Below, one piece after another: positions 11,601 through 52,738 of a stretch of DNA of 64,000 nt. The translations under genes were made by a program, and so were the position numbers. The stretch is taken from positions 704,001 to 768,000 of the forward strand of contig OY776562.1 of the NCBI GenBank assembly GCA_963675785.1, written 5' to 3'. This stretch comes from Anaerolineae bacterium. Lineage in GTDB: Bacteria; Chloroflexota; Anaerolineae; UBA1429. Under the pieces are notes generated by a model. The model was not told the origin of the DNA, did no database searches, and was given only the letters and a program-made list of their open reading frames with translations. Every line of letters begins with the position of its first letter. The first letter of the stretch is position 1.

Positions 11601-14600
11601 ATTGTGGTTACTGATACTCTGCCAGCATTGGCGTCTTATGTGGTCGATTCGGCCAGCGATAGCGGCACCTATGATGTAGATGCTCGCCAGCTCAATTGGG
11701 CCGTTGCTCTATTGGCCCCCGGTGGGTCGGTCAACTTGACCTACTCTGCGTTGATGGATGCTTATGTCTCCGAGTTTGCCGAGAGTATTACCAATACGGT
11801 CTCGGCGGCAGACGATGGCGTTCGCGGCGAAGATCCTAATCCTGATGATAACCATGACACCGACATAGACACTATCAATGCTACGGCTGTGGCTGAGGTC
11901 ACCAAAGAGGCCCTCACCGAGAGCCCCGTGGCGCCAGGCGACCCCGTGAGCTACTCGGTTGAGGTGACCAATACCGGCGACCGCGAAGCCGAGATGGTGT
12001 TGGTTGATGCTTTGGATGATGTCGATCTCTCACTGGTGGTGGGCACCGTTGCGACCACCCAGGGAACGGTGGTGCTGGGCAACACGCCTGGCGATACAAC
12101 GGTTCGCGTTGAACTGGGCACGGTAGCGCCTACTGATATCATTACGGTGACCTTTGGCGGCCTTACAGCCGATCCAATCACCAAGGCTGTGGCTCAGGTC
12201 GAGAACCAAAGCACAGTTTCGGGTAATAGTATCACCACGGTTGATTCGGACGATCCCACCACGCCTGCGGCAGATGATCCTACCATAGTGCCGGTGAACG
12301 CTTTGGCCCAGGTGGAAAGCACCAAGGCCGACCTGCTCTTGCTCGACGGCAACTCGGACGGCATCGTCAATCCGGGCGATACGCTACGCTACACGGTCAT
12401 CATCAGCAGTACCGGCAACATGCCGGCGAACGGCGTGATCTTCAGCGACACGCCTGATAGCAACACAGCCCTTGTGGTTGGCAGCGTTACCACGACGCAG
12501 GGTTCGGTGACTATGGGCAACAATGCAGGGAATAGCACAGTTTCTGTTGCGCTGGGGCAACTGCCTGCTGGTTCTACCGCCACCATCACCTTTGATGTGA
12601 TCGTCGATAATCCGCTTCCTGCGGACATCGAGTCCGTGGCCAATCAGGGCCTCGTCTCGGGGGACAACATCACCCCGGTTTCTACCGATGATCCCGACAC
12701 GCCTGATGAGGGCGACGAGACCGTGACGCCTGTGGTAACTACCCATACATTGGTTAGCACCAAGACTGTAGCTCTGTTGACCGACTCGGACAGCGACGCT
12801 CAGGTCTCGCCGGGCGACGTGCTCGAATACACCGTGGTAGTCACCAATACAGGCGATATTGCCGTGACCTCATTGGTCATCAGTGATGTGCTTGATAGCA
12901 ACCTGGCGTTGGTGGTGGGCAGTGTTGCCACGACGCAGGGCACGGTGACCAATGGGAACACCTTGGGGGATACCGATATCGAGGTGACTTTGGGGGAACT
13001 AGCCGGCGGCAATGCTTTTGCTACGGTCACCTTTGCGGCAACGATCGTGAATCCGCTGCCTGAGGGAGTGGACACGGTGACCAACCAGGCTTTGGTGCAA
13101 TCCAACGAGGTCGCTGATGTGCTTACCGACGATCCGACTACGGATATGCCGGATGATCCCAATGTGACGCCTGTAACAGCCGCACCGGAAATCATGGTAA
13201 CAAAGGATGATGGTGTGAGTCTCGACGATACCCTTGTACCCGGTGATGTCTTTACTTATACGCTAACTGTTGAGAACGTGGGTAACCAAGATATTGCCCT
13301 AGTTCTGGACGATGATATAGAAGATACCAACCTGTCTTTGGTGGCTGGCACTGTAACGACTACTCGAGGCACGGTGCTGTTGGGCAACAGTTCAGATGAC
13401 GCAGTGCAGGTCGATTTGGGGACGATGTCGCCGAGCACTGGCATCATCACCGTTACTTTCCAGGTGCAGGTGAATGATCCTATCGTCGGTGGTGTGGATT
13501 CCGTGGCTAACCAGGCCTTGGTGTCTGGTGAGGGTGTTGAGGAATCCTCGAATGATCCCGAAACGCTCGCCGAGGACGACCCAACCGTGACCTATGTCGA
13601 TGCGGCGCCGGCAGTGGATATGCTCAAATCAGCGGCCTTGCTCAATGATGTCGATACTAACGGTGTGGTCTCGCCGGGCGATGTGCTGCGCTATACCCTC
13701 CTTACCGAGAACAGTGGTAACGCCAGCGCCATGAACCTTACGCTGGAGGACACACCGGATGCGAATTCGACGCTGATCACGGGTACCGTGACCGCCACAC
13801 AGGGAACCGTAACCACAGGGAACGGTGCTGGCGATGTGACAGTGGCCGTGAGCGTGCCCGAGTTAATGGGCAGCGAATCCTTTACGGTGACCTATGATGT
13901 GATGGTTAACTATGCCTTTACCGAGGCCATCACGCTAACCAACCAAGCTCTGATCGATTTCGATGAGACCACCGAGCCTATACCCAGCGATGATCCCGGA
14001 ACGCCCGAAGAGGATGATCCCACGTTGGTGCCGGTGGATATCACACCAGCGCTGATGCTTACCAAGACGGATAGCCTTCTTCTCGACGAGAACGAGGATG
14101 CCGCCTTGAACCCCGGCGAGACGCTGGTCTATACCATCGTCCTGACCAACAAAGGTTTTCAACCCGCCTCGGCGGTGGTTTTGACCGACACCATCGATTC
14201 GGGTGCTGTGCTGGTAACAGGTACGGTGACAAGCACGCTGGGTACTGTAGTTGAGGGCAATGGCGCCGAGGATACGGCTGTGCGCGTCGAGTTGGATACA
14301 CTAGAGGCCCAAGCCGTTGTGACGGTGAGCTTTCAGGTGACGCTACCCTTCGATTGGCCGTTGGATGTGACCGAAATCGCCAACCAAACAGTGCTAACTA
14401 GTGCTGAGACAGAGCCGCTTGTTAGCGATGACCCCGAAACCGACGAGGCCGATGATCCAACGGTAACGCCGATAGTGGCCCAGCCGGATGTGTTGGCTTT
14501 CAAAGTAGATGAACTGCTCGATGATGTCGCTCAGGATGGGGCGATCAGCGCGGGTGATGCCCTACGCTACACCATCACACTGAACAATGTGGGCACTGGG

Positions 14601-15257
14601 CCAGCGAGCAGCGTGGTTTTGAGTGATACATTGGATACCAATACCTCACTCATTGCGGGTTCGGTAACGACGACCCAGGGTATGATCAATATTGGCAATG
14701 GCCAGGCTGATACGGCAGTGCAAGTGACTATCGATGAGCTTTTGCCAGGAACAGTGGTTACCGTTACTTATGATGCGCGTATTGCCAGCGAACTTGCGCC
14801 GGGCACGGTGCTGAGCAACCAGGCCGTGATCTCGAGCCCTGATTTTCTCACAAAGTACAGCGATGATCCTGCGGCAGGTGGCGATGAAGATCCGACCGAG
14901 ACGCCGGTGGTGCCACCTACAGCAATCGACTTGCTCTCTTTTGGGATCACAGGGGTGCATGGTAGCCAGGTCGATCTGGCCTGGACGACGGCTACTGAAG
15001 TGGACAACCAGCGTTTTGAGATCTGGCGGGCCGATTCATCTTCGTTCTCCGAGGCCACACAGGTGGGCACGGTGATGGCTCAAGCCGCCGCAGCGAATGG
15101 TGCCAGCTATGCCTGGAGCGATACGGACGTGCCCGATGGTGCCTGGTGGTACTGGCTTGTTGATGTCGATTCTGAGGGTGCCAGCCAGGTACATTATGAT
15201 AGAGTCCGAGTGGCTGTTGTGGGACGCCAGTTTTACCTGCCCTTGTTGTTCAACTAG
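5700..15257 (+). CDS. giant secreted adhesin/fimbrial-like protein, 3185 aa, with DUF11 / isopeptide-forming Ig-like repeats and a C-terminal YLPL tail
   Basis: Signal peptide MPKSRGIRVFARCLLAIILFSLSGMSVMAA; many K..GD/E..Y....N.G......D.LP....N.A domains; very acidic, T/V/D-rich; ends FYLPLLFN. Confidence 0.85.
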   Translation: MPKSRGIRVFARCLLAIILFSLSGMSVMAAGEETPVPLVGLSGSNSALIGESTTFYATFDNTSSDLNAVGYGPFIDIVLPTNGADGVAGTDIADGLSFVSATYETTTLDPIVIVFDELGQAEHPLTGEIISGTPGDELVVFELPFGSFVPDQPSVRIAIRALLSEFADLDTTLYVTSRAGFYLGADPLNNPSTDAPIISAWSDPGFAMSPTIMTIHKDYIGPEDETATGPNWVRQYEIRVNIADGQPVSNIELSDILPPELAYVSLDTVSPADYTLTAEPPLAVPSESPTSTLSLTWEVITGTGSSADITARFSFFVPEYDAYGDPILDPLTGGCTTISNQATASGTWTPIDERDEEVVLSQQSAEHEADFEACALVIQKDVSIVNDLFTSGATPGDTLGYTLHIQASDYYTVGGDVSFVVTDTLSDGQLFAFDSLSGADASYSIGDRDGTATGVFTDGINLDVDTSLNPLYGTSGVCGGGETILTFDLGTALAASLTQPDALLTGGSIGQSGDPSQDPAYPAPCAPAQGTITYRTVIQEQYGCTVPSGDQSIDQNDYLDNDVDIVGGVYTGDPLTLTGTTGDDSAERVDLVDGSISKVVYARNGVIGDTGPFEAGDTITYRIRYNLPTADVEDLSLIDFLPLPTLQVNDWDADNTTGDAATWMFDEVVAIDSVPVSGHASYGPADTFHEMSGGNPSPAPAPVLTADASGNSLTFYYGNHDIDNGISATIDLLFTVTVQDDPFADGMYLTNQLQAIEQNSFLDVVTTTDIVQIQLTGPELNIYKGIVWASNGELSPATAAPVAMDVEACPAFSEAITSAGLETNPIDSDLSGVDGGDTIRFAIVLENTGTGPSGAFDVQLSDALPTGITSADVQNICVTDGAGTPLAYTELGSGLFDLAGGIELTDGAETGAIGPYSEDAGTNIVVVTYDVVVPASAAVDSLYENTASLANYTNVEGGEDYIDKYGVVEETASWETTDPTVSKSLLSTSESQTSGNNAVIGELVTYQVQIDLPEGTTPDAVLVDTLEAGLAFVDVITVTAPVSITTDYAGSWDGVVAGSSLDNVGTGDANVDRQLTLSLGSLVNSDTDDETTESVTVEYRAVVLNTLANVRGVSRENSAVLQWTTGSDTAGAVSVVVVEPQFTISKDMTPSTADAGDQVVITLTIANPSASSQVDAYDVSLEDMLSTGLTFVGFGAQTGLTPDSLTETDGQIDATWSVFPLNQTATVVFTATMDADVSAGQIIQNGATVEWASKADASTAGANPLGVRRTGDTSDAGALANDYLTTAADTTSVPVAIAKTLISTSESETTGTYVAVGEIARYRLVATIPEGETASLVIQDRIPTGLGYLDDGTATAAIISDDAMTSTLAGSLELTSIYTTGSSVVTPVVVLPDTMASSSLSDTAADTYSSGSDVYFHFGTVTNDDRDENAEYIVIEFNAQVLNTSTAQEGVSLSNNARIYTGSTVVATSGSVAVRVAEPVLTVNKQIITAAPYDAADELVYEVVVTNSSTAGNGRIAHEVVISDTIDADTTLVSAVMSNGNPVSDMGAYVQSSVDSLAPGESVTLTVTVDISDAVAPATAVADTATASWTSLPASGTTSNPTGSVVLGSQGAANGERDGSGGVNDHITNDSVSVSVDNVAPTKVLLGTSEDDTSGTNVAIGELATFEIEVVIPEGATSVMTITDAIPNGLWVDLSTVQLNFGTSVTAVSSDVSGGGSSGADLVVALTDLVVEANNVADDNLLTITYTAHVVDESGISGITVPTQTVLSNGVSVQVGSSPVVNATPVSLRVVEPRLQIVKEMSPDPIALDDTLVMTVTVRNTGLASAYDLAVSDQVPGTYVENLTLTNVSAGASPSTSVVGDDLLVTLTQDTLVAGAEMSFVVTGTVKAGVPYQTVITNSATVTQATTLPGDDPLERTEPEVSDAENVTVGRPDIVVTKTDNVTIAAPGDTLNYVITVRNAGNVRATGIVVTDTLPALASYVVDSASDSGTYDVDARQLNWAVALLAPGGSVNLTYSALMDAYVSEFAESITNTVSAADDGVRGEDPNPDDNHDTDIDTINATAVAEVTKEALTESPVAPGDPVSYSVEVTNTGDREAEMVLVDALDDVDLSLVVGTVATTQGTVVLGNTPGDTTVRVELGTVAPTDIITVTFGGLTADPITKAVAQVENQSTVSGNSITTVDSDDPTTPAADDPTIVPVNALAQVESTKADLLLLDGNSDGIVNPGDTLRYTVIISSTGNMPANGVIFSDTPDSNTALVVGSVTTTQGSVTMGNNAGNSTVSVALGQLPAGSTATITFDVIVDNPLPADIESVANQGLVSGDNITPVSTDDPDTPDEGDETVTPVVTTHTLVSTKTVALLTDSDSDAQVSPGDVLEYTVVVTNTGDIAVTSLVISDVLDSNLALVVGSVATTQGTVTNGNTLGDTDIEVTLGELAGGNAFATVTFAATIVNPLPEGVDTVTNQALVQSNEVADVLTDDPTTDMPDDPNVTPVTAAPEIMVTKDDGVSLDDTLVPGDVFTYTLTVENVGNQDIALVLDDDIEDTNLSLVAGTVTTTRGTVLLGNSSDDAVQVDLGTMSPSTGIITVTFQVQVNDPIVGGVDSVANQALVSGEGVEESSNDPETLAEDDPTVTYVDAAPAVDMLKSAALLNDVDTNGVVSPGDVLRYTLLTENSGNASAMNLTLEDTPDANSTLITGTVTATQGTVTTGNGAGDVTVAVSVPELMGSESFTVTYDVMVNYAFTEAITLTNQALIDFDETTEPIPSDDPGTPEEDDPTLVPVDITPALMLTKTDSLLLDENEDAALNPGETLVYTIVLTNKGFQPASAVVLTDTIDSGAVLVTGTVTSTLGTVVEGNGAEDTAVRVELDTLEAQAVVTVSFQVTLPFDWPLDVTEIANQTVLTSAETEPLVSDDPETDEADDPTVTPIVAQPDVLAFKVDELLDDVAQDGAISAGDALRYTITLNNVGTGPASSVVLSDTLDTNTSLIAGSVTTTQGMINIGNGQADTAVQVTIDELLPGTVVTVTYDARIASELAPGTVLSNQAVISSPDFLTKYSDDPAAGGDEDPTETPVVPPTAIDLLSFGITGVHGSQVDLAWTTATEVDNQRFEIWRADSSSFSEATQVGTVMAQAAAANGASYAWSDTDVPDGAWWYWLVDVDSEGASQVHYDRVRVAVVGRQFYLPLLFN
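11890..14912 (+). repeat. seven tandem ~144-aa intragenic repeats (DUF11-like, DxDxDG and SDDPxTP loops)
   Basis: Recurrent PGD/E.L.YT, V.G(S/T)VTTTQGTV..GN, NQ(A/G/T)LV, SDDP.TP..DDPTV.PV at about 430-bp period; boundaries approximate. Confidence 0.85.
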
Positions 15258-15287: not shown

Positions 15288-15914
15288 ATGAAGCGTATGA
15301 TTCTGATACTGTCGATACTAGTAGGGATGCTCATTGCGGCACAGCCGGTAGCAGCTGGCTTTACGCCGACGCCCGTTGCTCCCACTGTGGCGCCAACGGT
15401 TACACCAATCCCCACTGGCGTCGTTTCCGATTCTTCCGAGAATTGCGCGGCGCAACTGGTGGTTGAGTTGCTTGGCGATGTTCCTGAGGGTCTGGTGGTT
15501 TCGGGCTGGCTGGGTAGCGACAGCAGCAATCAGTCCGAACCGACTGGCTCTATGGCTTTTGAGAGGCCCTGGTTGGGGCAGATTTTGGGTATCCCCATCT
15601 CACCCAAAACAACCTACCAAGTTTGGGGTTGGACAGAACAGGGTGGGTGGATATACTTTTTCGAGGTGACTGCTGGTGGTTGTGTGGATGTGTTGGGGCA
15701 GCACGCGTTCTACACTGCTACGTCAACGGCCACGCCCGTTCTTGCGCCAACGCCAGCCGAATTGCCCGAGACAGGTGGTATGGCACCATCTATCCCCTGG
15801 GGGCAAATTGCTTTGGCTGTGACGGGTGTAGGTGTGCTCTGGCAGGGTATTGCTTCTGGTACGCTCCTACCCAACCGGCGCTCCAAGCGCTCAGAACGTT
15901 ATCGCGATCAATAA
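15288..15914 (+). CDS. LPXTG-anchored (LPETG) small surface protein with Pro/Thr-rich linkers
   Basis: Signal peptide; PT-rich segments; LPETG followed by a hydrophobic helix and the basic tail RRSKRSERYR. Confidence 0.8.
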   Translation: MKRMILILSILVGMLIAAQPVAAGFTPTPVAPTVAPTVTPIPTGVVSDSSENCAAQLVVELLGDVPEGLVVSGWLGSDSSNQSEPTGSMAFERPWLGQILGIPISPKTTYQVWGWTEQGGWIYFFEVTAGGCVDVLGQHAFYTATSTATPVLAPTPAELPETGGMAPSIPWGQIALAVTGVGVLWQGIASGTLLPNRRSKRSERYRDQ

Positions 15915-16059: not shown

Positions 16060-18783
16060 TTGAAAAGACTTGTAGTCATCCTCTTGTTGATGCTTGTCAA
16101 CGGGAGTGCCCTGGTGAGTGCTGCTGTGCCTGTCGCACAGCCAGCTTCAGCGGGACGCACGGTAATCGTATACCAGGATGGCCTGACGGTCTCTTGGAGC
16201 ACCCCCGATCTTGCCATTGCTGCCGAAGAAGATAGCATAGTAAGCGTCCATGCTGGCGAATGGGCAGTGGATACCGTTGAGAATAGCAGTGTATCCTTGC
16301 CCTACGATGCCCTCCTTATCGCCCTTCCTCCCAATATAGAGCCTCAATTGACGATAATCTATCCCGATGCGCAGTATGTTACTTCCCTAGCGCTCTCTGC
16401 ATCAACTGACACGAGTTCCCCCGTTACTTTTGTCGAATTAGGCACCTCGGCGGGCGTGCGGCTGGCTTCGCTGCGCTTTGATTGTGCCACTGTACAAGAG
16501 GGAGAACTATTCTACTGGCCCTCGGCCTCGGTGGAGATATCCTGGAATACTGCTGTGGTGGATGAAGGGCAGCCTGCGCCTGCCTGGGTGGCCGATTCGG
16601 TGGTAAATCCCCAACATGCGCTTGTTGCGCGTGAGGCCAATATCATTCAAACGGCCATGCCCAGTGTTGAGGGCGATCTCTATGCCCAGGTGGACGAGGC
16701 CGGCTTGTACAGCCTGGATGCAGCCCTTTTGGTTGCGCAAGGTTGGGAGAGCGTCGATCTGCGTCAGGTCTGTGTTTTCCATGGCGACGAGCAGGTGGCG
16801 ACCCTCATCGAGGACGATGGCGATATCATGCTGGAGAGCGGTGAACGTATCCTCTTTTATGCCGAACCCGAACACAATCGCTATGCACTGGATGACGCCT
16901 ATCGCATCACGCTGGATGCCAGCGCCTTGGCAATGGACACACGCTCCGCCTCATTGGGCACACTGCCAGAGGCATCATTACGGCGTAGCGTGCTCTTGGA
17001 GCAGGATTTACTCTATACCCCGGACTGCCTGTGCGGCAGCTTGCCCGCTGGCCATGATGGTGATATGTGGGCCTGGGCCTATTTGCGCGTGCCCGATGCG
17101 ACCGCTTTCGAGACATCGGTCGATCTCGATGATGTGGCTGTAAATGCCTCCGGTGTCGTGACGGCCTGGTTCATCGGTGGCACCTCGGTGCTCGATTACC
17201 CTGATCATATGGTGGAATTGTGGATCAATGGCGTGCGCGTAGGGCAGGGTAGCTTTGATGGCAAGACTCTCTACGCACTGGAAGTAGACATCCCCTCTGG
17301 CGTATTGGTACAGGGTGAGAACACCTTGCGCGTGGTGCTGCCCGGGAGTGGTGCTTCGGTTGAGGCTTGCTGGCTGGACGCCATCCAGCTCTCTTACAGT
17401 TGCGATGCTTTCTCTGTTGGTGGACAGCTCATCGTCGAGGGGGAAGAGTCAGTCTCTACCTATCAGGTAATCCTTGGTTCCGGCGATCTTTTATTTGACA
17501 TAACAGATGTATTCACGCCTGTTCAATTGGATACAGGCGCATCTTCAGGAAGCGTGTACTTGACCGATACAACCGGCGGGCAGCGTTATCTGTTGGTGGA
17601 TGAGGATGCGTTTCTTACGCCTGTGCTACGTCAAGCGCAGCAGGTGGAGGATGAATCGGGGAACTGCCTCATCATCACTCAGGCAGAGCTAATGCCCGCT
17701 GCACAGCGTTTGGCGGCTTGGCGAACTGCACAAGGCTATGGGGTGGTGCTAGTCAACGTGCAGGCTATCTATGATACCTTTGGCAGCGGTGTTGCCGAGC
17801 CAGAGGCCATCCGCGCTTATTTGCAGTATGCCTATGAAGAATGGCCTGCTGACATAGCTGGCGTCACACTGTTTGGTGGGGGCACCAGTGATCCCCGCCA
17901 GAACGTGACGGACATTGAGACTTTTATCCCAATCTATCTAGCAGATGTCGACCCCTGGGCTGGCGAGACCGCGGCGGATAACCGTTATGCTTGTGTGGAT
18001 GGTGCTGACAGTCTTCCTGATCTGGCTTTGGGGCGCCTGCCGGCCTGGTCGTTGGCTGAGGCGCAGACAATGGTGGATACGCTCGTCGCTTACGAGAGTG
18101 ATGGAGACCGTCAGCCATGGCATGGTTCGGCCGTGCTGGTTTCCGATGATCAAGATACAGCCGGAGACTTTGAGGCTATCTCTGAACAGTCGGCGGCGCA
18201 GCTGCCACAGGGAACTGTGGCGCAAACACTTGTGCTAGAGGGGGCCAGTGCCTCATATTCTGATGGCACTGAGGCGGATGCGGCCTCTATTCGGCAAGCG
18301 CTGGTTGCGGCCTGGCAGCAGGGGATTGCCTTTGTGCAATTTTCCGGGCACTCTTCCTGGCAACAGTGGGCTATCGAATCGGTGCTGCACCTGGATAATT
18401 TGCCCTGGCCTAATACTATTGGTCAGGTGCCCGTAGTGTTGGAGCTCACTTGCTTTACGGGGGCGTTTCAGCGCCCCGAAGCCACGCTGGATCGAACCCT
18501 GGTCTCCAGCGGGAAAGCCATAGCGGTTTTTGGCCCTTCGGGTTTAGGCATCAACACCGGTCATGACCAACTGGCGCAGGGTTTTGTGGCGGCTCTGTAC
18601 GACCAAGAGCAGATGTTGACGCTGGGCCAGATAGCCAATGCCGCCCGGTTGCAATTGGCTGCTTCCGGACGGCATCTAGAGTTATTGGATACCTATACTT
18701 TACTAGGTGATCCGCTGGTGGTTCCCCATACAGGTGCGGGTAGTCTACCCTATGCTTGTTACCTTCCTCTGAATTTGCGCTAG
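16060..18783 (+). CDS. C25 family cysteine peptidase (gingipain/PorU-like), secreted, with a C-terminal YLPL tail
   Basis: Signal peptide; IYDTFG..AIRAYL..A, DNRYA....PDLALGRLPA, FSGHSS (His), LTCFTG (Cys), YTLLGDP; ends CYLPLNLR. Confidence 0.85.
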   Translation: MKRLVVILLLMLVNGSALVSAAVPVAQPASAGRTVIVYQDGLTVSWSTPDLAIAAEEDSIVSVHAGEWAVDTVENSSVSLPYDALLIALPPNIEPQLTIIYPDAQYVTSLALSASTDTSSPVTFVELGTSAGVRLASLRFDCATVQEGELFYWPSASVEISWNTAVVDEGQPAPAWVADSVVNPQHALVAREANIIQTAMPSVEGDLYAQVDEAGLYSLDAALLVAQGWESVDLRQVCVFHGDEQVATLIEDDGDIMLESGERILFYAEPEHNRYALDDAYRITLDASALAMDTRSASLGTLPEASLRRSVLLEQDLLYTPDCLCGSLPAGHDGDMWAWAYLRVPDATAFETSVDLDDVAVNASGVVTAWFIGGTSVLDYPDHMVELWINGVRVGQGSFDGKTLYALEVDIPSGVLVQGENTLRVVLPGSGASVEACWLDAIQLSYSCDAFSVGGQLIVEGEESVSTYQVILGSGDLLFDITDVFTPVQLDTGASSGSVYLTDTTGGQRYLLVDEDAFLTPVLRQAQQVEDESGNCLIITQAELMPAAQRLAAWRTAQGYGVVLVNVQAIYDTFGSGVAEPEAIRAYLQYAYEEWPADIAGVTLFGGGTSDPRQNVTDIETFIPIYLADVDPWAGETAADNRYACVDGADSLPDLALGRLPAWSLAEAQTMVDTLVAYESDGDRQPWHGSAVLVSDDQDTAGDFEAISEQSAAQLPQGTVAQTLVLEGASASYSDGTEADAASIRQALVAAWQQGIAFVQFSGHSSWQQWAIESVLHLDNLPWPNTIGQVPVVLELTCFTGAFQRPEATLDRTLVSSGKAIAVFGPSGLGINTGHDQLAQGFVAALYDQEQMLTLGQIANAARLQLAASGRHLELLDTYTLLGDPLVVPHTGAGSLPYACYLPLNLR

Positions 18784-42912: not shown

Positions 42913-43752
42913 TCATTCCTCGGCTTTCTCGCCGTTATTGACTGGCTCCTCATAGGCAATCTTTAGCGCTTGTTGCGATACCGTACTATACACTTTTGCA
43001 AGCCTTGCCATCAAGCTGCTGTCATTGATGAATCCCGGGCGCCCAAGTAGTTTGATGATCTGCATTCTAATCTCGGGCCCGTGTACGCGAATGTGCACAT
43101 CTGTGCCTTCAGGGCCCATCTCCCAATACGAGTCAATACATTCTTCGAGCGGAGGTTCGTAGGCCATGTCCGTCAAAGCGGCGCGTGCCTCTGATTTCTC
43201 CCCGTCGTTGGTCCCCCGCAATTCGCGCAGTGCCGCAATGATCTGTTCGCGGTTTCTGCCCCGCAGTTTGAACAAGAGATATGGGTCTTCGTCGAGCAAG
43301 TCACCAAAGGCGATACATGCTGCGGCTACATGCCGGCAGGGCACTGACCAGTTCGGCCCGCTGCATTCAGAGCCAATGTCACTCCGTTCAGAGGGTAACA
43401 ACGAGACGCCCTGCGCCTCAAAAATATCTTCAATATCGCGCGGTATCTCACCGTTCAGCAGGTGAGCAGAAAAACTGGCCTCTTCGGACATGGCTGCAAT
43501 GGCTTGTTCCCACACGTTGTCCCGAAAGGTCTGTACGCTGATGATGACGTGAAAGGTTTCTTCGTTCGGTTCGCTCACATCGGCTTCAAAGCGGCCGACG
43601 TCCACAACTAGATTCTTGACACGTCCGGCGCGAACATAGCGCATGCGCCCTGTGGATAGCAGGCTATTGCTAACCCATCCTTGCAGGGCTTGAAGCCACT
43701 TGCCAGACCACAATGTTTTATAATGCGTTCTGCCCATGTCCATGCTTGGCAT
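42913..43752 (-). CDS. SWIM zinc-finger family protein (SNF2 partner)
   Basis: GR.RY.R.GRV, LL.GE.P, C-S-G-P-x4-PCRH, DPYLLFKLRG. Confidence 0.85.
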   Translation of the reverse strand: MPSMDMGRTHYKTLWSGKWLQALQGWVSNSLLSTGRMRYVRAGRVKNLVVDVGRFEADVSEPNEETFHVIISVQTFRDNVWEQAIAAMSEEASFSAHLLNGEIPRDIEDIFEAQGVSLLPSERSDIGSECSGPNWSVPCRHVAAACIAFGDLLDEDPYLLFKLRGRNREQIIAALRELRGTNDGEKSEARAALTDMAYEPPLEECIDSYWEMGPEGTDVHIRVHGPEIRMQIIKLLGRPGFINDSSLMARLAKVYSTVSQQALKIAYEEPVNNGEKAEE

Positions 43753-46700
43753 TAGTCGTCTCCCAGCTCGTCGTCGATCGATTCTGAGCGCAGCAAGATA
43801 ACATCCTTGAGCTCATCCGTCGACAGTTCTGTGAGCCAGCCTTCGCCCGAGCCAACTACATTCTCGGCCAATTCGCGCTTGCTTTCGATGAGTGTATCAA
43901 TGCGTTCTTCAAGCGTGCCCGGGCAAATGAACTTGTGTACCTGTACATTTTGTGTTTGACCGATGCGGTAGGCGCGGTCAGTAGCTTGGTTCTCTACGGC
44001 CGGGTTCCACCAGCGATCATAATGGAATACGTGGTTGGCACGCATCAAGTTCAATCCCAAGCCGCCTGCTTTGAGCGAGAGCACAAAAATGGAAGGGGCG
44101 CGTTCATCTTCTTGGAATCGCTCCAGCATGTGGTCACGCTGGCGTTGCGGCGTGCCCCCGTGTAAAAAGAGCACCTCTTGGCCAAAATGTTCCTGCAAAT
44201 GGCGTTGCAAGACAAAGCCCATCTGGGCAAATTGGGTAAATACCAGCGCTCGATCGCCAACGGCCAGTACTTCTTCCAGCATCTCGGTCAGGCGGTTGAG
44301 CTTGCCTGACCGACTGGCCGATGCCGAACCGTCCGCCAGATAGAGCGCAGGATGATCGCAAATCTGCTTGAGCCGGGTGAGCATGGTAAGCACCATGCCC
44401 CGTCTCCTGATGCCCGACATATCCTTGCTGTCCTGATTGAGTTGGCTCAAGCCGTTTTGCACCACTGCCTGGTAAAGGCTAGCCTGCTCGCGCGTCAGGT
44501 TGCAATACACCTTGTACTCGAACTTTTCTGGCAAGTCTTGGATGACTTGCGGATCGGTTTTCACGCGGCGCAGCACAAAGGGGCGCACCAGTATCCGTAG
44601 TTTCTCGGATGCTGCCTCATCCTGGAAGCGCTCGATGGGCACAGCGAATTCGCGTCTAAAGCTCTCCAGCGAACCCAAATAACCGGGGAGCAAAAAGCTG
44701 ATGATGGACCACAGCTCTGAAAGGCGGTTCTCGATGGGTGTGCCAGTGAGGGCGATGCGATAGTCAGAATCCAACAGGCGTACGGCCCGTGCTTGTTTGG
44801 TATAAGGGTTCTTGATGTTCTGAGCTTCATCAAGGATAACGTTGGCCCAGCGCACTTGCCGCAAATCCTCGAGGTCACGACGCACCAAACCATACGTACT
44901 TACCACAATATCATTGCTCAGGCTCTGCTGAATAAAGTTCTCGCCTTCGGCGCGGCCGGTACCGTGATGTACCATCACGTTGAGATCGGGCGCAAAACGT
45001 TGAATTTCACGCTTCCAGTTGCCCACCAACGATGTGGGGCACACCAATAGCGTGGGGTTTTCTCCGCCGCCGTTCTTTCGCTCGTGCAGAACAAGGGCAA
45101 TAGCCTGGATGGTCTTGCCCAGACCCATGTCATCGGCTAGGCAGGCACCCAAATGCCAGTGCCGCAAAAAAGCCAACCACGAGAGGCCCCGTTTTTGGTA
45201 GGGACGCAACTCGCCCACAAAGTCTTCGGGTGTGTTGAGCTCGGGCAATTCCTGCCCGGAATCCAGTTGGCTCAAGAGACTGGCCAGCCAGCCATCTACT
45301 TCGATGGCGGATACTGTGAGCCCATCTAACTCGTCTTCAACACCCAGAGCCAACCCCAGAGCTTCGTGCAGCTCAATGCTTGACCGTTGCTGCTGTTTTT
45401 CCCAAAAGGCGATGGCTGCTTCCACTTGGTCCGGTTGCAGCAATACCCATCGCCCACGAACCTGGACCAGCGGCGTCTTGAGCTGAGCCAGGCGCTCAAA
45501 CTCTTCTTTCGTCAGCACCTCGTCGCCCAGAGCCAGTTCCCAGTCATATTCGACCAGGCTGTCCATGCTCAACATGCCCTTTTGTTGCGGCTCGATCATA
45601 TTGCCTTTGAGCTTGGCGCGTACGCTCAGGCGGGCGTCCGACCGATTCCACCAGGGCGGAACCATGACCGCAAACCCCTTTTCCTGCAAGAGCTGGGCGG
45701 TTTCGCGCAAAAAGCGAAAGGCCTCTTGGGCCGATAGTGTCGCCGATTCGGGTTTTTCTTTACGAAGGCTGCGCTGAATTGCCGTGCTGTATTGCGCGGC
45801 AATGCCCAGACCGGCCAGCAATCGTTCTTGTGCGTTCTCAAAGCTGTGATCGAGAAAACCGCCCGGGGCGATTTGTCCTTGCCACACGTCATGGACGGGT
45901 ACGAGCAGGCTGGGGTCTTTGACGGACTGGAACAGATATTCCAGTCGCCAATGTGCCTCAGAGCTCTCCAGGTCATAATCAGGAGCTTCCAGTCGGAAAC
46001 AGAGCTTAAAGTCGAAATGCTCGACTTGCTGTGATGGGTATGTCCAACTTCGCCAGGATTGCTGAAAGCGGTCGAGTTCGCCCCGTTTCGCTTCTGGCAC
46101 GGCCATGGTGTTATCGTCGGCGTAAAGCGCCTGCCACCAGGCACTGTCGACACGCGATGTTCGCACCCGCCGGGTTCGCTGCGCCAGGCCAAACTCTGCC
46201 GCATTGGGCGAGGCATAGGCCCAGTCTCGCACGGCCGAATCGACGAGGTTCTCGATAAAGCTAGACAGAACCGTATACGGGCGTGGCACCACTTCGCGCG
46301 CGTCATTCGCCGTTTCGCGAACTACGGCACGACATACGGGCGGCATGGCCTTCATCAGTAGGGTAAAGCGCTCGCGATCGTTCTCATCATTGATATAGGG
46401 CAACCAAATGGCGCCATAAGCATCGCCGTTTTTTTGCATACCGGGCAAAAAGCGTTCGCGAGCCAGCAACTCTAGGCCGAATTTGGCCACCAGACCCCAG
46501 TAACGCAAATCCTCGCCCAATTTATGGTCGTTCTGGCTGCCGTTCTGCATGGCAGGCAGCACCGTAAGCACGCGCAGCATATCGAGCACCGAAACGCCAA
46601 TACCTTCAACACGCCAGGGAGCCAGAATAGGCTCGGTATCTGGGTCAGGAGAGGCGTTATCCGCGGCTAACCAACCGGGTACAATAGGAGATTGCTCGCG

Positions 46701-46943
46701 CGATGGAAGCAGAGCAACGCGCGTGAGGCGCTGGGCACCCTGCCAGGCAATGCTCGGCACATAGTGCGACAGCAGATCCGCAATCTCGATAGTCGTCGCG
46801 CCGTACGGATGACGTAGAATGCGAGGTGTTTTGTTGTGTTGTGCGGGCAGCTCACGCCGAGCCCGCTCTGTCCAAACAAAGAAAAGGCCATCGGTTTGGC
46901 CGTCTCTGTCAGTTACCCAGGTTCCATGCAATACAGCTCGCAT
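43752..46943 (-). CDS. SNF2-family helicase/ATPase
   Basis: LRPYQ, LADDMGLGKT, DEAQ, TGTP.ENR, SGK, DRWWNPAVENQATDRAYRIGQ. Confidence 0.95.
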   Translation of the reverse strand: MRAVLHGTWVTDRDGQTDGLFFVWTERARRELPAQHNKTPRILRHPYGATTIEIADLLSHYVPSIAWQGAQRLTRVALLPSREQSPIVPGWLAADNASPDPDTEPILAPWRVEGIGVSVLDMLRVLTVLPAMQNGSQNDHKLGEDLRYWGLVAKFGLELLARERFLPGMQKNGDAYGAIWLPYINDENDRERFTLLMKAMPPVCRAVVRETANDAREVVPRPYTVLSSFIENLVDSAVRDWAYASPNAAEFGLAQRTRRVRTSRVDSAWWQALYADDNTMAVPEAKRGELDRFQQSWRSWTYPSQQVEHFDFKLCFRLEAPDYDLESSEAHWRLEYLFQSVKDPSLLVPVHDVWQGQIAPGGFLDHSFENAQERLLAGLGIAAQYSTAIQRSLRKEKPESATLSAQEAFRFLRETAQLLQEKGFAVMVPPWWNRSDARLSVRAKLKGNMIEPQQKGMLSMDSLVEYDWELALGDEVLTKEEFERLAQLKTPLVQVRGRWVLLQPDQVEAAIAFWEKQQQRSSIELHEALGLALGVEDELDGLTVSAIEVDGWLASLLSQLDSGQELPELNTPEDFVGELRPYQKRGLSWLAFLRHWHLGACLADDMGLGKTIQAIALVLHERKNGGGENPTLLVCPTSLVGNWKREIQRFAPDLNVMVHHGTGRAEGENFIQQSLSNDIVVSTYGLVRRDLEDLRQVRWANVILDEAQNIKNPYTKQARAVRLLDSDYRIALTGTPIENRLSELWSIISFLLPGYLGSLESFRREFAVPIERFQDEAASEKLRILVRPFVLRRVKTDPQVIQDLPEKFEYKVYCNLTREQASLYQAVVQNGLSQLNQDSKDMSGIRRRGMVLTMLTRLKQICDHPALYLADGSASASRSGKLNRLTEMLEEVLAVGDRALVFTQFAQMGFVLQRHLQEHFGQEVLFLHGGTPQRQRDHMLERFQEDERAPSIFVLSLKAGGLGLNLMRANHVFHYDRWWNPAVENQATDRAYRIGQTQNVQVHKFICPGTLEERIDTLIESKRELAENVVGSGEGWLTELSTDELKDVILLRSESIDDELGDD

Positions 46944-48099: not shown

Positions 48100-48837
48100 A
48101 TGGGGAAAAAGATTCGCGTTACAGTGTGGAACGAGTACCGCCACGAGAAGAAGGATAAAGCCGTTTCGGACGTCTATCCTGAGGGCATTCACGGCCAGAT
48201 CGCCGCATTCCTTGGTGAGAACGCTGATTTGCAGATTCGCACCGCCACGCTCGATGAGCCCGATAATGGCCTGCCGCAGTCAGTCTTGGATGAGACCGAT
48301 GTATTGATTTGGTGGGGACATATGGCTCACGCCGACGTGCTGGATGAAACTGTAGATCGCGTACAAGCCCGCATTTTGCAAGGCATGGGCCTCATCGTGC
48401 TGCACTCGGGCCATTATTCCAAGATATTCAAGCGCATGATGGGCCAAACCTGCAATTTGAAATGGCGTGAAGTGGGCGAGCGCGAGCGCATTTGGTGTGT
48501 GCGCCCCGGTCATCCCATCGCCAAAGACGTGCCTGAAAAGTTTGTGATCCCTCACGCCGAGATGTATGGCGAGCCCTTTGATATTCCTCAACCCGACGAG
48601 CTTGTTTTCATCAGCTGGTTCCAGGGCGGCGAAGTGTTCCGCAGCGGCTGCTGCTACCATCGCGGCAAGGGCAAGATCTTTTATTTCTGCCCCGGCCACG
48701 AAACCTTCCCCATTTACTATCAAAAAGAAGTTCAGACCGTCATCAAGAACGCTGTTCATTGGGCAGCGCCGGTGGATGGTCCCACCATTACTTGGGATAA
48801 CGTCAAGGCTCAGGAAGAATTTGAGATTTCTGACTGA
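48100..48837 (+). CDS. thuA: trehalose utilization ThuA-like protein
   Basis: [45 protein letters not shown]. Confidence 0.88.
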
Positions 48838-48854
48838 CCGGGCTTGGACAGACC

Positions 48855-48888
48855 AAAAAGGGTGTCCCTACAAGGGGCACCCTTTTTT
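48855..48888. terminator. bidirectional intrinsic terminator
   Basis: AAAAAGGGTGTCCCT-ACA-AGGGGCACCCTTTTTT between convergent thuA and the RT gene. Confidence 0.8.
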
Positions 48889-48983
48889 CTATGGGCGAGT
48901 GCTCAATGTGCTGACTGGAGCCGATTGACGATGGCGAGCAGGTGGCCGTTTGCACGCCCCTTTTTATGGGTTTGGCGTTGTAC

Positions 48984-51900
48984 TCAATCTGCCTTTTTAC
49001 GGTCTTGTTCAAACACGTATTTCCAGAGAGTGTGATTCTGTTTACGTTCTACGATGTCAGGCCTAAAATTAGGTGGGGTCGGCTTGAAAGTATCGTCATC
49101 GTGCTGCAATTCGTATTCTTTCCGCTGAAACTCGCGCAGTGCGTCAATATCGATCTCATCAACTAGTATGGCGCTGTTTTTACCGCCCTTCGTCTTAATG
49201 AGGTCACGTTTCTCTGTAGGCGATGGTGATGTGACTCTACTGTCGCCGTAATCTGACGAGTTCGCCTGAATACAGAAGCAATGAAGGTCACGGCACAGTG
49301 ATTCGATGATGCTACTAAAATAGTTGGTATCTCTATTCCACTCTACTGCTACCGTAAGGTCAGCATAAGATTGAAACAGCGCACGGTCTTGAATAGACGC
49401 TAACTCGTAGCAACAATATACAGAAAACCATACATCTCGCCAATAGAACAAGTGATAGGCGTTCCCCTCTATAGGAACAAATCGATATCCCTTAATTATC
49501 CGTTTTTCCTCTGGCGAATAATGTACCTTTTGATGATAGGTGATATAAGCATATTCATAGTTTTCTTGACGATAAGGCAAGATGATAGCTGTTAGATTAT
49601 ATACTTTTCGTTGTTTTTTATTTTCTCCTTCATGTGCTGGAGAAACTATGTGCTCAATACCTGTGATGAGCCCCATCTGATTTCTGGCACACAGCCTAGC
49701 AATGTCTGGGACCCATTCCCAGGGCAGATAGCTTTCGGGCAACACCAAAAGATCGACCTTCTCTTTGATTGCTGCACGGAGTAGATCTGAAAGCTGTTGG
49801 TATCGCTCAAAACTACGGTTTGCTTTCCCTGTAAGAGCCCCATAAAAATCCTTATCAGTGAGTCTGGCGTTTCCAATGGAGACTTTGAGTTTCTTGCAAG
49901 AATCATCTCCAATGGATATGGCATAACATCCTCTGTTTATAGTATCTTTTTTGAACTTTTCTGGACGAGTTCTCTCTGAAGTAGAGCTATTTTTGTTATC
50001 ACTTTTGTTCTCATCATCGCTCGCTATGCCACAGTGATCTTCATCAGCAGAGCAATCCCTAAATATTCCCACTTTTATTTTATCAAGAGCAAATTTCTTC
50101 CCATCTTCTTCCGATGTTGAGTTTCTTAAATTCGGATAATTCCACTCTCTATATAGAGTTTCTATTTTTTCTCGTTGTTTTATTGGATCTGGCAGATCAA
50201 CAGCACTGCTTATAGCCTGGCAGGTAAGGGCGAAAGAAAGCTCTTGTGGGGTCACCATATATGGATAATAGTGATATTCTTGATCTTCCCATTTCGCGTC
50301 CAAGTATCCTACCACATCCTCAAGTTTATAAAGACATACGTCGAAAGATAATTCATCAGAGAAAATAACCCCCAAAAGGCAATCTATTGGAAGAGGTATT
50401 ACATACTTGTTAATCATCCGTGTGGTACAGTAGTTCTTTCTAGTTTTCAAAAGAGAATCATAGGAGAAATCGATACAGAATTCATCCAAAGCTCCTGCTC
50501 CAACTCTAGGAACAGTCAGAGTTTTCATCGCTGCTTCCTCAATATTTTTGAGGGTTTTTTTGATGTTTGGTCCCCAACGTAACGCGGCTGTGCGACATAT
50601 GGCCGCACGAAGCGTTCTCAGGAGCGCTTCGTCTGACTCTTTGCTCGTTTTGACCTTTTCGTCCGGTACATGAAATTCGACGATGGTCTCCAAAATGTTG
50701 GTTATTAGCTTTTGGTAATTAGTCAAACGATCATTGACAATCATGATTTCCAACAGACGTTCCCACAAAGTGTGATTCTCTATAAGGGCATGCCGATCCA
50801 GAATGGTCAGAAGATCTCTATCAAAGACTGTCTCTTTTTTATCTCTAATCATGCCGCTGGCTTGGCGGTACTTGCCGAGAAACTTGGAGAGTGAGAATTT
50901 ATCCAATTCAACTCCGGCAACGCCTCGCAACTTATGGATACTGTCCTCTCTCTGCAAGTGGAATATTTCACTGTAATCATTTTTGTTGAGGAGAGTGTCC
51001 ATTTCCGGCAAATAGTTGAATCCACTTGCATTTTGAGCGATCTGTGTGTGGAAACAATCTAATAAAGCTCTACTTGCGCCTTTGCGAAAGTAGAATACCC
51101 TGACTTTGCTATCTTGTATTTGAATATCAGGATTTCCTTTTGTACTAAAGATAGCTGGGTTAATCTTATATGCTGAGGGAAAGTTTCGAGCTTGGGAACT
51201 CTCATCTGTGACTTGCGTTTTGTCTTGTTCCTTTGATGGTGTTTTCTTATCCTCTGATGGAGTCTCTCTGTTGCTTGTGATTCCTATAAACAGTTCTTGT
51301 TCATTCGGGCAGTCTGTTCGACTCGCAGGGCATGAACAAAAGTAATAGTTTATCACAAATTCTCTCGTTAGCCGCTCTGTTTGTTCTGTAATTTTCTCGC
51401 CATTCTTATATTTTTTCGATACTTCGTTTGCTTTTTTCTGTAACGGGCTATTTTTCTCTACTTTATCGACGATGATAATGTCATCCACATAGCGCCCATA
51501 GTAGACGGGGTTCCAGCGTTTGATGATAGCGTCATCAAACGGCGTAAGAGCCCAATTAGATAGGATTTTGGAGGGTAGGAAACCGATGGGCAGGATTGTA
51601 CGCTTTCCAATCTGCAATTCCATATCAGTACTTATTTCCCTTATTTTGTCCGAATAGGCACAAAGGACAGCATAGACAAACGCATGGATACGTTTGTAAA
51701 CGCGCTCCTGCCACGGTTCGAGAGTCTTGACATATTTAAACAGTTTTTCGAACTCTTCCTCCTGAATGTCGACGCTGTAATAGAAACTCTTGAAATCCAG
51801 AGTCAGAATCAGAGCATCTTGCTTATCATCAAGCCTACTCTTGGCGTATTGCAAAGCTTTGTCACGCCAGCTCTCATACTGAATAAAATAGGGCTCGAAT

Positions 51901-52421
51901 AGATTGGGCGAGTAGGTAATATCTTCAGAATCGGGATTGATCAAGGTTTTTCTTAGTCGATTACCGTAAGAATGCTCATACATAAGTGCACCATCTGGGT
52001 TATTGGGATTATCTAGAGCCAAACCAACAGACAGCACCCACAAAACTCCTAGGATATGTCCAGTGATGGGTAGATCAATAAAGTATTGAGCTTTTTCGAG
52101 CTGGACAGGCTCACCATCTGTGTTAAAAATGATTCCATTTTTGTCCCTATCTTCTAATTTTTTTGGTAATACCAGCACATTAACTTTATTTTTTATCTGT
52201 TCTTCATATTCTTTCCATATACTTTCTTCTGCCAAAAGTGCGGTACATAGAGTGGAAAAACTGTCGTCGACTTGATCTGTTTCAAACTCAACTATCTTGT
52301 CTCGCAATGGGGGCATATATTTATCAAAGTAAACACTAGCCTTTAGTTTTTTGTAGGCGATGCAAATACGCTTTAATAGTTCATTAAATCCTTGACTTTC
52401 ATTGTTTTGTTCTTTTTGCAT
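48984..52421 (-). CDS. reverse transcriptase-nitrilase (C-N hydrolase) fusion, UG/Abi class, DRT1-like defence RT
   Basis: RT motifs SYGNRL, LDFKSFYY, LPIGFLPS.ILSN, YYGRYVDD; C-terminal nitrilase triad LPES / QKVHYSPEE / YCCYEL, then QANSSDYGDS. AT-rich relative to its flanks. Confidence 0.88.
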   Translation of the reverse strand: MQKEQNNESQGFNELLKRICIAYKKLKASVYFDKYMPPLRDKIVEFETDQVDDSFSTLCTALLAEESIWKEYEEQIKNKVNVLVLPKKLEDRDKNGIIFNTDGEPVQLEKAQYFIDLPITGHILGVLWVLSVGLALDNPNNPDGALMYEHSYGNRLRKTLINPDSEDITYSPNLFEPYFIQYESWRDKALQYAKSRLDDKQDALILTLDFKSFYYSVDIQEEEFEKLFKYVKTLEPWQERVYKRIHAFVYAVLCAYSDKIREISTDMELQIGKRTILPIGFLPSKILSNWALTPFDDAIIKRWNPVYYGRYVDDIIIVDKVEKNSPLQKKANEVSKKYKNGEKITEQTERLTREFVINYYFCSCPASRTDCPNEQELFIGITSNRETPSEDKKTPSKEQDKTQVTDESSQARNFPSAYKINPAIFSTKGNPDIQIQDSKVRVFYFRKGASRALLDCFHTQIAQNASGFNYLPEMDTLLNKNDYSEIFHLQREDSIHKLRGVAGVELDKFSLSKFLGKYRQASGMIRDKKETVFDRDLLTILDRHALIENHTLWERLLEIMIVNDRLTNYQKLITNILETIVEFHVPDEKVKTSKESDEALLRTLRAAICRTAALRWGPNIKKTLKNIEEAAMKTLTVPRVGAGALDEFCIDFSYDSLLKTRKNYCTTRMINKYVIPLPIDCLLGVIFSDELSFDVCLYKLEDVVGYLDAKWEDQEYHYYPYMVTPQELSFALTCQAISSAVDLPDPIKQREKIETLYREWNYPNLRNSTSEEDGKKFALDKIKVGIFRDCSADEDHCGIASDDENKSDNKNSSTSERTRPEKFKKDTINRGCYAISIGDDSCKKLKVSIGNARLTDKDFYGALTGKANRSFERYQQLSDLLRAAIKEKVDLLVLPESYLPWEWVPDIARLCARNQMGLITGIEHIVSPAHEGENKKQRKVYNLTAIILPYRQENYEYAYITYHQKVHYSPEEKRIIKGYRFVPIEGNAYHLFYWRDVWFSVYCCYELASIQDRALFQSYADLTVAVEWNRDTNYFSSIIESLCRDLHCFCIQANSSDYGDSRVTSPSPTEKRDLIKTKGGKNSAILVDEIDIDALREFQRKEYELQHDDDTFKPTPPNFRPDIVERKQNHTLWKYVFEQDRKKAD

Positions 52422-52683
52422 AATCTTATGCCTTTGTAAAGTGAGTTCTGGCGATCAAATCTCTACCGAGTCTTGCAAAAAAAGCTCTTGTGTAACTATT
52501 ATCATGGACTTTTCACTAAACAGTGTGCTCTCTTGGTATTATTCAGGGAAAACATCAACTTACAGAGATAGAGAAGATTCTCAACTATTGAAACTGCTAA
52601 TAGATATCTTATGAAGCTATAATACACTTTTTTGCGTTAAAAGTCTGCTGTATCACTATAAATCACCAACGCGTAAGCCAACA

Positions 52684-52712
52684 TTGCACTTTTGGCTCTT
52701 GTTGGCTATTCT
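52684..52712 (+). promoter_or_regulatory. sigma70-like promoter of manA within an inverted repeat
   Basis: TTGCAC-N17-TATTCT; AGCCAACA (52676) / TGTTGGCT (52700) arms. Confidence 0.55.
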
Positions 52713-52738
52713 GGTGAGGTACAAGCAAAGGGGAATCT

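Follow-up and report, generated by a model that had tools for sequence, protein, structure and literature searches.

Locus organization and family assignment

The window analyzed here is a stretch of 64,000 nucleotides from the contig OY776562.1 of an Anaerolineae bacterium (phylum Chloroflexota). The gene under study lies on its reverse strand (48984-52421, -) and codes for a reverse transcriptase (RT) fused to a C-N hydrolase of the nitrilase type. Its open reading frame (ORF) encodes 1145 residues in a single frame without internal stop and begins with an ATG, about 10 nt 5' of which an AAGG ribosome-binding site is found. The RT motifs LDFKSFYY (residues 208-215; nt 51777-51800) and YVDD (residues 311-314; nt 51480-51491) and the nitrilase motifs LPES (residues 894-897; nt 49731-49742), QKVH (residues 964-967; nt 49521-49532) and YCCYE (residues 1002-1006; nt 49404-49418) lie where an initial annotation of the sequence had located an RT and a complete Glu-Lys-Cys triad. 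In an alignment of 25 homologous sequences, the residues D209, Y311-V312-D313-D314, E896, K965, C1003, C1004 and E1006 are invariant, and the window copy keeps all the invariant columns.

The protein is best matched by the PADLOC model RT_UG5-nitrilase (PDLC03780), which aligns residues 7-1128 with positions 13-898 of a 907-position profile (765.9 bits, E 1.8e-230). Its two halves are also recognized separately, the RT half by RT_UG5_small (2.4e-64) and the C-terminal half by RTasNitrilase (2e-31). After unknown group 5 (UG5), the next RT group is Drt1a (PDLC03745), with 74 bits over residues 151-336 only; PDLC02171 reaches 25 bits over the nitrilase end. The Pfam domain RVT_1 is above its cut-off (E 7.5e-9, residues 186-339). 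The best NCBIfam retron model, St85, stays at 41.6 bits for a cut-off of 235 and leads to no retron assignment. With UG5 as the best model and no Rfam match, the protein does not fall among the RTs of retrons, group II introns or diversity-generating retroelements (DGR), the placements named in the initial annotation as contradicting its own. The ORF is intact and its UG5 match is far above chance.

A protein database search retained 876 relatives at E <=0.001 among 7963 candidates. The best of them, the window protein itself excluded, are 63% identical to it, and most are 1020-1090 aa long. When the profile of the 25-sequence alignment was compared with solved structures, a single match was returned, DRT1 (9yfd_A, E 6.9e-14), in which C1116 stands opposite C1004 of the window protein. 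Mestre et al. (2022; PMC9226505) assign UG5-large RTs to class 3 and describe them as carrying a C-N hydrolase fused to the RT. The window protein has the size (1145 aa, above 1000) and the extension between RT and hydrolase (a helical region, residues 441-766) looked for in such proteins. Judged from its sequence, the gene is a UG5-large RT fused to a nitrilase (class 3 UG/Abi, DRT11-type) and not a UG1/DRT1 gene; the RT tree of this analysis comprised UG5-large-like proteins only, and DRT11 was the one UG reference sequence used. The initial annotation had proposed a DRT1-like UG/Abi RT-nitrilase fusion. The fusion and its class are borne out by the PADLOC search, while the group has to be changed to UG5-large.

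Domain organization and predicted structure

The N-terminal region with the RT fingers and palm (residues 1-345; 51387-52421, -) contains the RVT_1 domain, the invariant D209 (51795-51797) and the YVDD motif. It is followed by a variable loop rich in Ser, Thr, Lys and Glu (residues 366-413; 51183-51326, -), whose length and sequence differ among relatives, and by a central, mainly alpha-helical domain (residues 441-766; 50124-51101, -) with many invariant columns. In the AlphaFold2 model, the helices of this domain span H450-H761, with a per-residue confidence (pLDDT) for the block mostly of 70-95. An acidic Ser-rich low-complexity insert (residues 791-828; 49938-50051, -; pLDDT <50) then precedes the nitrilase domain (residues 830-1104; 49110-49934, -). 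Most of the insert (residues ~798-833) is peculiar to the window protein, which alone among the aligned sequences fills alignment columns 870-905; the 24 relatives have a gap there. The nitrilase residues are E896 (49734-49736), K965 (49527-49529), C1004 (49410-49412) and E1006 (49404-49406), all on the reverse strand. The conserved C-terminal tail (residues 1105-1145; 48987-49109, -) carries an FKPTPP motif; F1112, K1113, P1116, P1117 and K1127 are conserved and K1127 is invariant. This tail is a possible counterpart of the swapped lid of DRT1.

The AlphaFold2 model of the whole protein has a mean pLDDT of 71.2 and a predicted template modelling score (pTM) of 0.77. Its RT part was matched by Foldseek to AbiA, DRT9, G2L4, DRT6, DGR and retron RTs, the best match being AbiA 8oz7, and its nitrilase part to the amidase 6ypa, the D-carbamoylase 6lei, 2vhi and the nitrilase 3ivz, in a PDB copy that ends in April 2026 and does not hold the DRT1 structure 9YFD. 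Residues 366-373 and 384-413 of the post-RT loop are predicted to be disordered (pLDDT <50). This loop is situated ~72 residues after YVDD, and the priming Ser402 of DRT1 is found 77 residues after D325 (Neville et al. 2026; PMC13275509). Although the window protein has such a disordered loop, none of the loop residues can be aligned to Ser402. T386 (51264-51266) belongs to a semi-conserved E-x-T-P motif and is conserved only in the nearest sub-clade. The loop is a candidate protein-priming site, with T386 as a candidate residue that is a guess.

Two copies of the nitrilase part (residues 830-1145) were also modelled together. The interface score (ipSAE) was 0.44, compared to 0.01 for the best control; among proteins of known structure, 20 of 30 pairs but only 1 of 23 single chains attain this mark. 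Contacts agreed at 100% between runs, the pLDDT of the partner was at least 87 and the interface was formed by the invariant segment 1073-1089. The model supports a nitrilase homodimer, with a score that may reflect likeness only since many solved structures are nitrilase dimers.

Flanking DNA and search for a partner gene

Downstream of the RT-nitrilase gene, an inverted repeat (48855-48887) forms a bidirectional intrinsic terminator in the host DNA outside the acquired island described below. It consists of two 15-nt arms (48855-48869 and 48873-48887) that are 93% complementary and separated by a 3-nt loop, with A and T runs beside them. It lies 96 nt past the RT-nitrilase stop and also serves ThuA, a convergent gene whose end is at 48837. 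The gap 3' of the gene contains this terminator only, and no partner ORF fits into it, as stated in the initial annotation (a terminator ~95 bp past the stop). Upstream, the 317 nt that precede the divergent phosphomannose-isomerase (PMI) gene (52422-52738) contain only ORFs of at most 70 aa. The source genome, a single contig that is 94.8% complete, has one UG5 match only. It gave no match to the Drt1b hidden Markov model, a weak negative as the same model matched no control genome either. The model PDLC03746, which is RT_UG10_large, proved irrelevant to the partner search.

A transmembrane (TM) partner encoded downstream (clusters 85/1858) is reported for 31 of 299 UG5-large RTs, as an accessory (Mestre et al. 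2022; PMC9226505). The lone state of the window gene is therefore ordinary: it is real, and it is the majority state of the UG5-large family. The proposal of a single-gene anti-phage variant in the initial annotation keeps its first part, a single-gene system whose activity would be anti-phage, but the lack of a partner makes no special variant of it. Likewise, the downstream side is indeed empty as had been noted, but only that side had been considered. In the clade of the window protein, the RT usually has a RecQ helicase gene upstream of it; no such gene is present here or elsewhere in the genome.

Membrane proteins are neighbours of the RT at only three of 49 genome loci surveyed. These are a 777-aa BnzB-like 4-TM protein encoded upstream (L003:2578-4911, +), a 226-aa 3-TM Csx27-like protein downstream (L054:9651-10331, +) and a 466-aa 9-TM protein downstream (L047:4404-5804, +). 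None of the three resembles the small one-TM partner.

The SNF2 helicase with a DUF3670 domain (43752-46943, -) was considered as a partner and rejected: a relative that has no RT encodes it in the same position with 66% identity, and its GC content is host-like. Although the PADLOC ZorD/DpdE models match this helicase strongly, it probably belongs to the resident genes and not to the RT island. It is abutted by a 279-aa ORF without family (42913-43752, -).

An acquired island in an Anaerolineae genome

The GC content drops from ~0.55 to ~0.40 at the RT-nitrilase gene, whose ORF has a GC content of 0.409 compared to 0.459-0.605 for the other 44 ORFs of at least 120 aa in the window. Its neighbours are the SNF2/DUF3670 helicase, an FmdE-TrmO protein, ThuA, PMI, an FAA hydrolase and ROK and FGGY kinases, with the methionyl-tRNA synthetase (MetRS) further off. 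Among the 120 best MetRS homologues, all 13 that are organism-named belong to Anaerolineae or Chloroflexota, and the organism-named matches of ThuA are mostly from the same groups. The named relatives of the RT-nitrilase are nearly all from Bacillota, almost all of them Clostridia. The UG5 model was searched in 40 related genomes, 24 from the same family and a further 16 from the same class, and matched none. In a same-family relative without the RT, the order SNF2(-)-ThuA(+)-[315-aa ORF(-)]-PMI(+) is kept.

The RT-nitrilase gene was found in 8 public runs from 3 studies. Logan contigs of four public runs were compared with the window between 46500 and 55000. In one run, possibly the source, one contig covers all of it. 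Contigs of the others leave the window sequence at 48835-48950 and at 52675: they do so behind 48950 (runs X4, X6 and X8, with the same letters) and before 52675 (X4 and X6, with the same letters). The island therefore extends over approximately 48951-52674 (3.7 kb), which also corresponds to the GC drop, and the slot between ThuA and PMI seems to have other content in other strains. The AT-rich 5' region that is carried with the gene (52422-52674, -) includes the promoter region and the AAGG. In X4 and X6, which belong to one study, the k-mer depth of the flanks is 58-74 and 130-143, and that of the RT-gene contigs 7-12 and 12-31, i.e. about a tenth to a fifth. Contig depths being crude, this contrast is a hint of polymorphism and no measurement. 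It hints that the RT island is a minority allele in these two runs, in a strain-variable ThuA/PMI slot. No convincing direct repeats were found at the island flanks as an integration scar. Overall, the island was acquired horizontally by an Anaerolineae chromosome, most likely from a Clostridia-type donor.

Related genes often stand beside type I restriction-modification, GmrSD or helicase-nuclease genes. Some are lone and low in GC as in the window. One such copy is intact (L011:4977-8240, GC 0.37 in ~0.55 DNA), and another is broken up into three ORFs (L154:4977-8052), at the locus that ranks closest when the best tblastn segment is compared (59%). A RecQ-linked copy contains an in-frame stop or a frameshift (G002:C1:1897239-1900420). 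Copies of the UG5-large gene do decay. In a phage collection, tblastn gave no match to the window protein at 1e-10, and among plasmids only 5 distant matches were obtained; the copies on E. coli plasmids show 27.6% identity over 45% of the query by tblastn.

Elsewhere in the window, a 3185-aa protein with DUF11, DUF7619, DUF7507 and DUF7927 repeats (5700-15257, +) is followed by a 208-aa ORF (15288-15914) and by a 907-aa peptidase C25 protein (16060-18783, +). The arrangement resembles that of a giant surface protein and a protease that sorts or processes it.

RecQ helicases beside related genes

In a first survey, 49 of 54 genome loci were retained (the fragments L014, L031, L032, L043 and L055 were dropped). 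A full RecQ with DEAD, Helicase_C, RecQ_Zn_bind, RQC and HRDC domains was the same-strand neighbour of the RT in 12 of them, 9 times upstream and 3 times downstream, with gaps of -44 to +94 bp. A metagenome scan returned no relative with the single protein as query and 80 loci with the alignment. Over all 133 loci (53 from genomes and 80 from metagenomes), a same-strand RecQ was present within -18 to +134 bp in 36. It is located upstream in L002, L005-L010, L012, L031, L034, L075, L076, L078-L081, L083-L086, L090-L092, L096, L099, L101, L102, L110, L111, L134, L136 and L152, and downstream in L023, L028, L046 and L112. The junctions between RecQ and RT overlap or abut, in both gene orders.

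For clustering, 22 loci were dropped because their frame was broken or because they covered less than 950 aa of the RT. The 112 remaining proteins, that of the window included, formed 71 clusters at 85% identity, with RecQ upstream in 16, downstream in 4, absent in 45 (among them the cluster of the window protein) and undecided in 6; RecQ is thus beside the RT in 20 of the 65 informative clusters. In a FastTree phylogeny of the 71 clusters (midpoint root, Shimodaira-Hasegawa-like support, no bootstrap), the window protein belongs to a clade of 24 rows with 99% support. The tree needs at least 6 changes for the upstream state and at least 3 for the downstream state. Other helicases were encountered, namely giant RecQ-like/UvrD-like helicases at L040 and L004 and a 1099-aa DEAD helicase at L037. 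Two UG5-large homologues carry an additional C-terminal domain: HRDC (residues 1072-1136) in P0010 (1140 aa, 54% identical to the window protein) and an RNase_T/DnaQ-like exonuclease (residues 1119-1283) in P0005 (1331 aa, 60% identical). Both of these domains act on single-stranded DNA (ssDNA).

Of the 81 genomes of one family, 25 encode RecQ and 3 encode the RT; in these 3, RecQ is adjacent in one, elsewhere in one and lacking in one, and 23 genomes have RecQ but not the RT. In five genomes that were checked, three of them RecQ-adjacent, the adjacent RecQ was the only close RecQ of each of these three. The GC content of RecQ is mostly flank-like and that of the RT is lower than that of RecQ in 16 of 16 loci, which fits insertion of the RT beside a resident gene. 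A hotspot and a cassette are not separable here because the recQ flanks of four genomes in one family show no synteny. No protein of the source genome contains an RQC domain, and the best RecQ-like match there is 24% identical. When the 12 RecQ partners were searched against the window by tblastn, nothing was obtained below E 0.006 and no remnant in 52422-52738 (-). A link between RecQ and UG5 was found in none of the papers searched; the main text and part of the supplement of Mestre et al. (2022) contain no mention of it, and further tables of that work may bear on it.

A tentative and rather doubtful scenario is that the clade of the window protein was ancestrally a two-gene module with RecQ. 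An ssDNA helicase or exonuclease of the cell itself would handle the covalent ssDNA adduct that keeps the nitrilase latent, much as the phage protein Dda seems to do in the case of DRT1, and the HRDC and DnaQ-like fusions would be rarer forms of the same arrangement. The window copy would have moved across phyla without RecQ into a RecQ-free genome. If so, it would constitute a natural experiment: either the helicase is dispensable, or the system fires only with a helicase supplied by the phage.

Proposed mechanism and alternative explanations

The window gene is probably a one-gene abortive-infection anti-phage module, standing alone on a horizontally acquired 3.7-kb low-GC island. The present analysis establishes the family membership, the intact catalytic residues, the absence of a partner and the foreign origin of the island, and it provides a model in support of a nitrilase homodimer. 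The defence activity of the window protein, its priming, latency, trigger and substrate are what we infer.

A mechanism has been described for DRT1 (Neville et al. 2026; PMC13275509). According to that report, DRT1 synthesizes A-rich ssDNA without a template, using as primer Ser402 of a loop (382-478) that is not resolved in the structure. Under the effect of these adducts, tetramers held together by the nitrilase domains assemble into dormant filaments, with an alpha-helical repeat domain at the filament periphery, and a swapped C-terminal tail closes the nitrilase site, in which C1116 was mutated as the active-site Cys. Mutations of T4 phages that escape DRT1 were mapped to Dda, an ssDNA helicase. 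The system works alone, and its authors use the term 'minimal retron'. 'DRT5S' and 'DRT5L' are reported there to make covalently bound DNA without template as well. By analogy with DRT1 and 'DRT5L', the window RT would make short template-free ssDNA primed on a Ser or Thr of its own loop (residues 366-413). The covalent DNA would promote oligomerization through the nitrilase domains and hold the nitrilase closed. The adduct would be disturbed, and the nitrilase released, by replication functions of the phage such as perhaps a helicase, and the freed enzyme would hydrolyse some essential C-N compound, so that the infected cell stops.

Several observations weigh against this reading. The Pfam model CN_hydrolase matches the protein at E 0.0023 and 17.7 bits, under its cut-off of 23.2, and the AlphaFold2 monomer is of low confidence over the second half of the nitrilase (residues 1003-1081). 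The gene lies outside any defence island, among housekeeping neighbours. DRT11, which was validated with phages, is only 25-29% identical to the window protein. The equivalence of 'DRT5S' and 'DRT5L' with UG5-small and UG5-large is our own reading, as 'UG5' is never written by Neville et al. (2026). T386 is a guess as a priming residue because, as stated in the same paper, the other class 3 RTs do not conserve the priming Ser402 of DRT1. Finally, RecQ is encoded upstream in 15 of the 24 rows of the window clade, lacking in 7 and undecided in 2, and the window copy is without it.

This last point raises the question of whether the gene is the orphaned half of a RecQ and RT-nitrilase unit, which would be inactive, deregulated or reliant on a phage helicase. 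The frequency of RecQ among the loci, the clusters and the clade rows, the overlapping or abutting junctions in both gene orders, the HRDC fusion of P0010, the lack of an RQC domain in the source genome and the need of DRT1 for the phage ssDNA helicase Dda (Neville et al. 2026) all point in this direction. Yet the 7 clade rows without RecQ include lone low-GC copies such as L011, the genomes of the family surveyed uncouple the two genes in both directions, and the flank-like GC content of RecQ, with that of the RT lower at every locus compared, fits insertion beside a resident gene. DRT11 and DRT1 are moreover reported to work alone, and the window ORF is intact with all invariant residues. 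An orphaned half is unlikely. That the gene is a recently acquired passenger without function in its host, not yet decayed, is improbable. Its GC content is unameliorated, it is a minority allele in two runs, it is absent from the 40 relatives and related copies such as L154 and G002 do decay, but a 3.4-kb AT-rich frame has stayed fully open with every invariant residue kept, and the gene has its own 5' region, uses the terminator and is present in 8 runs of 3 studies.

A third possibility concerns the AT-rich non-coding stretch that travels with the gene. Several other UG/Abi RTs use non-coding RNAs (ncRNAs), and this region of ~254 nt could encode one that is copied by the RT, as in DRT2, DRT9 and retrons. 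Such a templated system is very improbable here. Rfam gave 0 matches between 48000 and 53500 at E up to 1; the fold of the 317-nt upstream sequence has a z-score of -1.11, with 14 of 100 shuffles folding equally well; blastn of both flanks against the 133 related loci returned only chance matches of 24-40 nt; in many relatives, RecQ abuts the RT start and leaves no such region; and DRT11 is reported to need no upstream RNA (Sanchez-Nieto et al. 2026; PMC13436386). The same region contains a 41-aa hydrophobic ORF (52502-52627, -) that was tried as a missed membrane partner. This ORF shares the strand of the RT gene, falls within the island and has one hydrophobic stretch, with a best 19-residue Kyte-Doolittle mean of 1.63. 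However, it has a GTG start and no Shine-Dalgarno sequence, AT-rich DNA readily yields such ORFs, it has no relative in the 133 loci (best E 0.79, inside an unrelated gene) and it lies upstream while the partners described by Mestre et al. (2022) are downstream. It was rejected, and a partner of this kind is scarcely credible.

The abortive-infection module being retained as the probable reading, the window gene is an ordinary UG5-large member and by itself of little weight, as the family, its partner-less form and the likely mechanism were published between 2022 and 2026. What is added is limited to three points. The gene is a clean example of how a class 3 defence RT, on an island with no other gene, passed to Chloroflexota from donors similar to Clostridia; public runs provide evidence of island polymorphism within the species; and a lead links a whole clade of UG5-large RTs to RecQ helicases, which bears on how the DNA adducts of RT-nitrilase systems sense infection.

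Comparison with known systems

Functional analogues are found in AbiK and AbiA and in retrons, which are without a nitrilase effector; retrons moreover use an ncRNA template. Closer to the window protein, UG5-small RTs occur with a separate nitrilase (cluster 249). Both halves of that system are matched by the window protein, in which they form one polypeptide. The E. coli system described by Rousset (2022; PMC9122126), from a P4 satellite hotspot and validated as anti-phage, likewise has a UG5 RT that ends in a nitrilase domain. It differs by its single TM partner, said to be necessary for immunity, whereas none was found at the window.

DRT1 (9YFD) and the window protein share the class 3 fusion, the aligned Cys, a disordered post-RT loop, a helical middle region, a conserved tail and the absence of a TM partner. 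They belong to different UG groups (74 bits for Drt1a, 766 for UG5), and filaments, the Dda trigger and A-rich adducts are known for DRT1.

Among the closest published systems is DRT11, a UG5-large RT without TM partner from Sinorhizobium meliloti with anti-phage activity (Sanchez-Nieto et al. 2026; PMC13436386). It is reported to protect against a subset of podovirus-like phages at low multiplicity of infection, in a multiplicity-dependent manner. Protection is lost in the RT DD>AA and nitrilase C>A mutants; a 179-bp upstream deletion was harmless, and RNA-seq revealed no ncRNA. DRT11, encoded on pSymA of strain RMO17, matches the same PADLOC model with 1016 bits. It is 1005 aa long compared to 1145 aa for the window protein, which has two extra low-complexity stretches. 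It comes from another phylum and is carried on a megaplasmid with toxin-antitoxin neighbours, in contrast with the lone window gene and its housekeeping neighbours. The two proteins are nevertheless collinear, with 25% identity over 344 aa in the RT and 29% over 286 aa in the nitrilase. Both have YGRYVDD, LPE, C-x-E, the nitrilase K and a C-terminal FKPxP, and neither has a TM partner. The DRT11 region is described as variable and absent from related strains, like the slot between ThuA and PMI that is occupied by the RT-nitrilase gene in the window.

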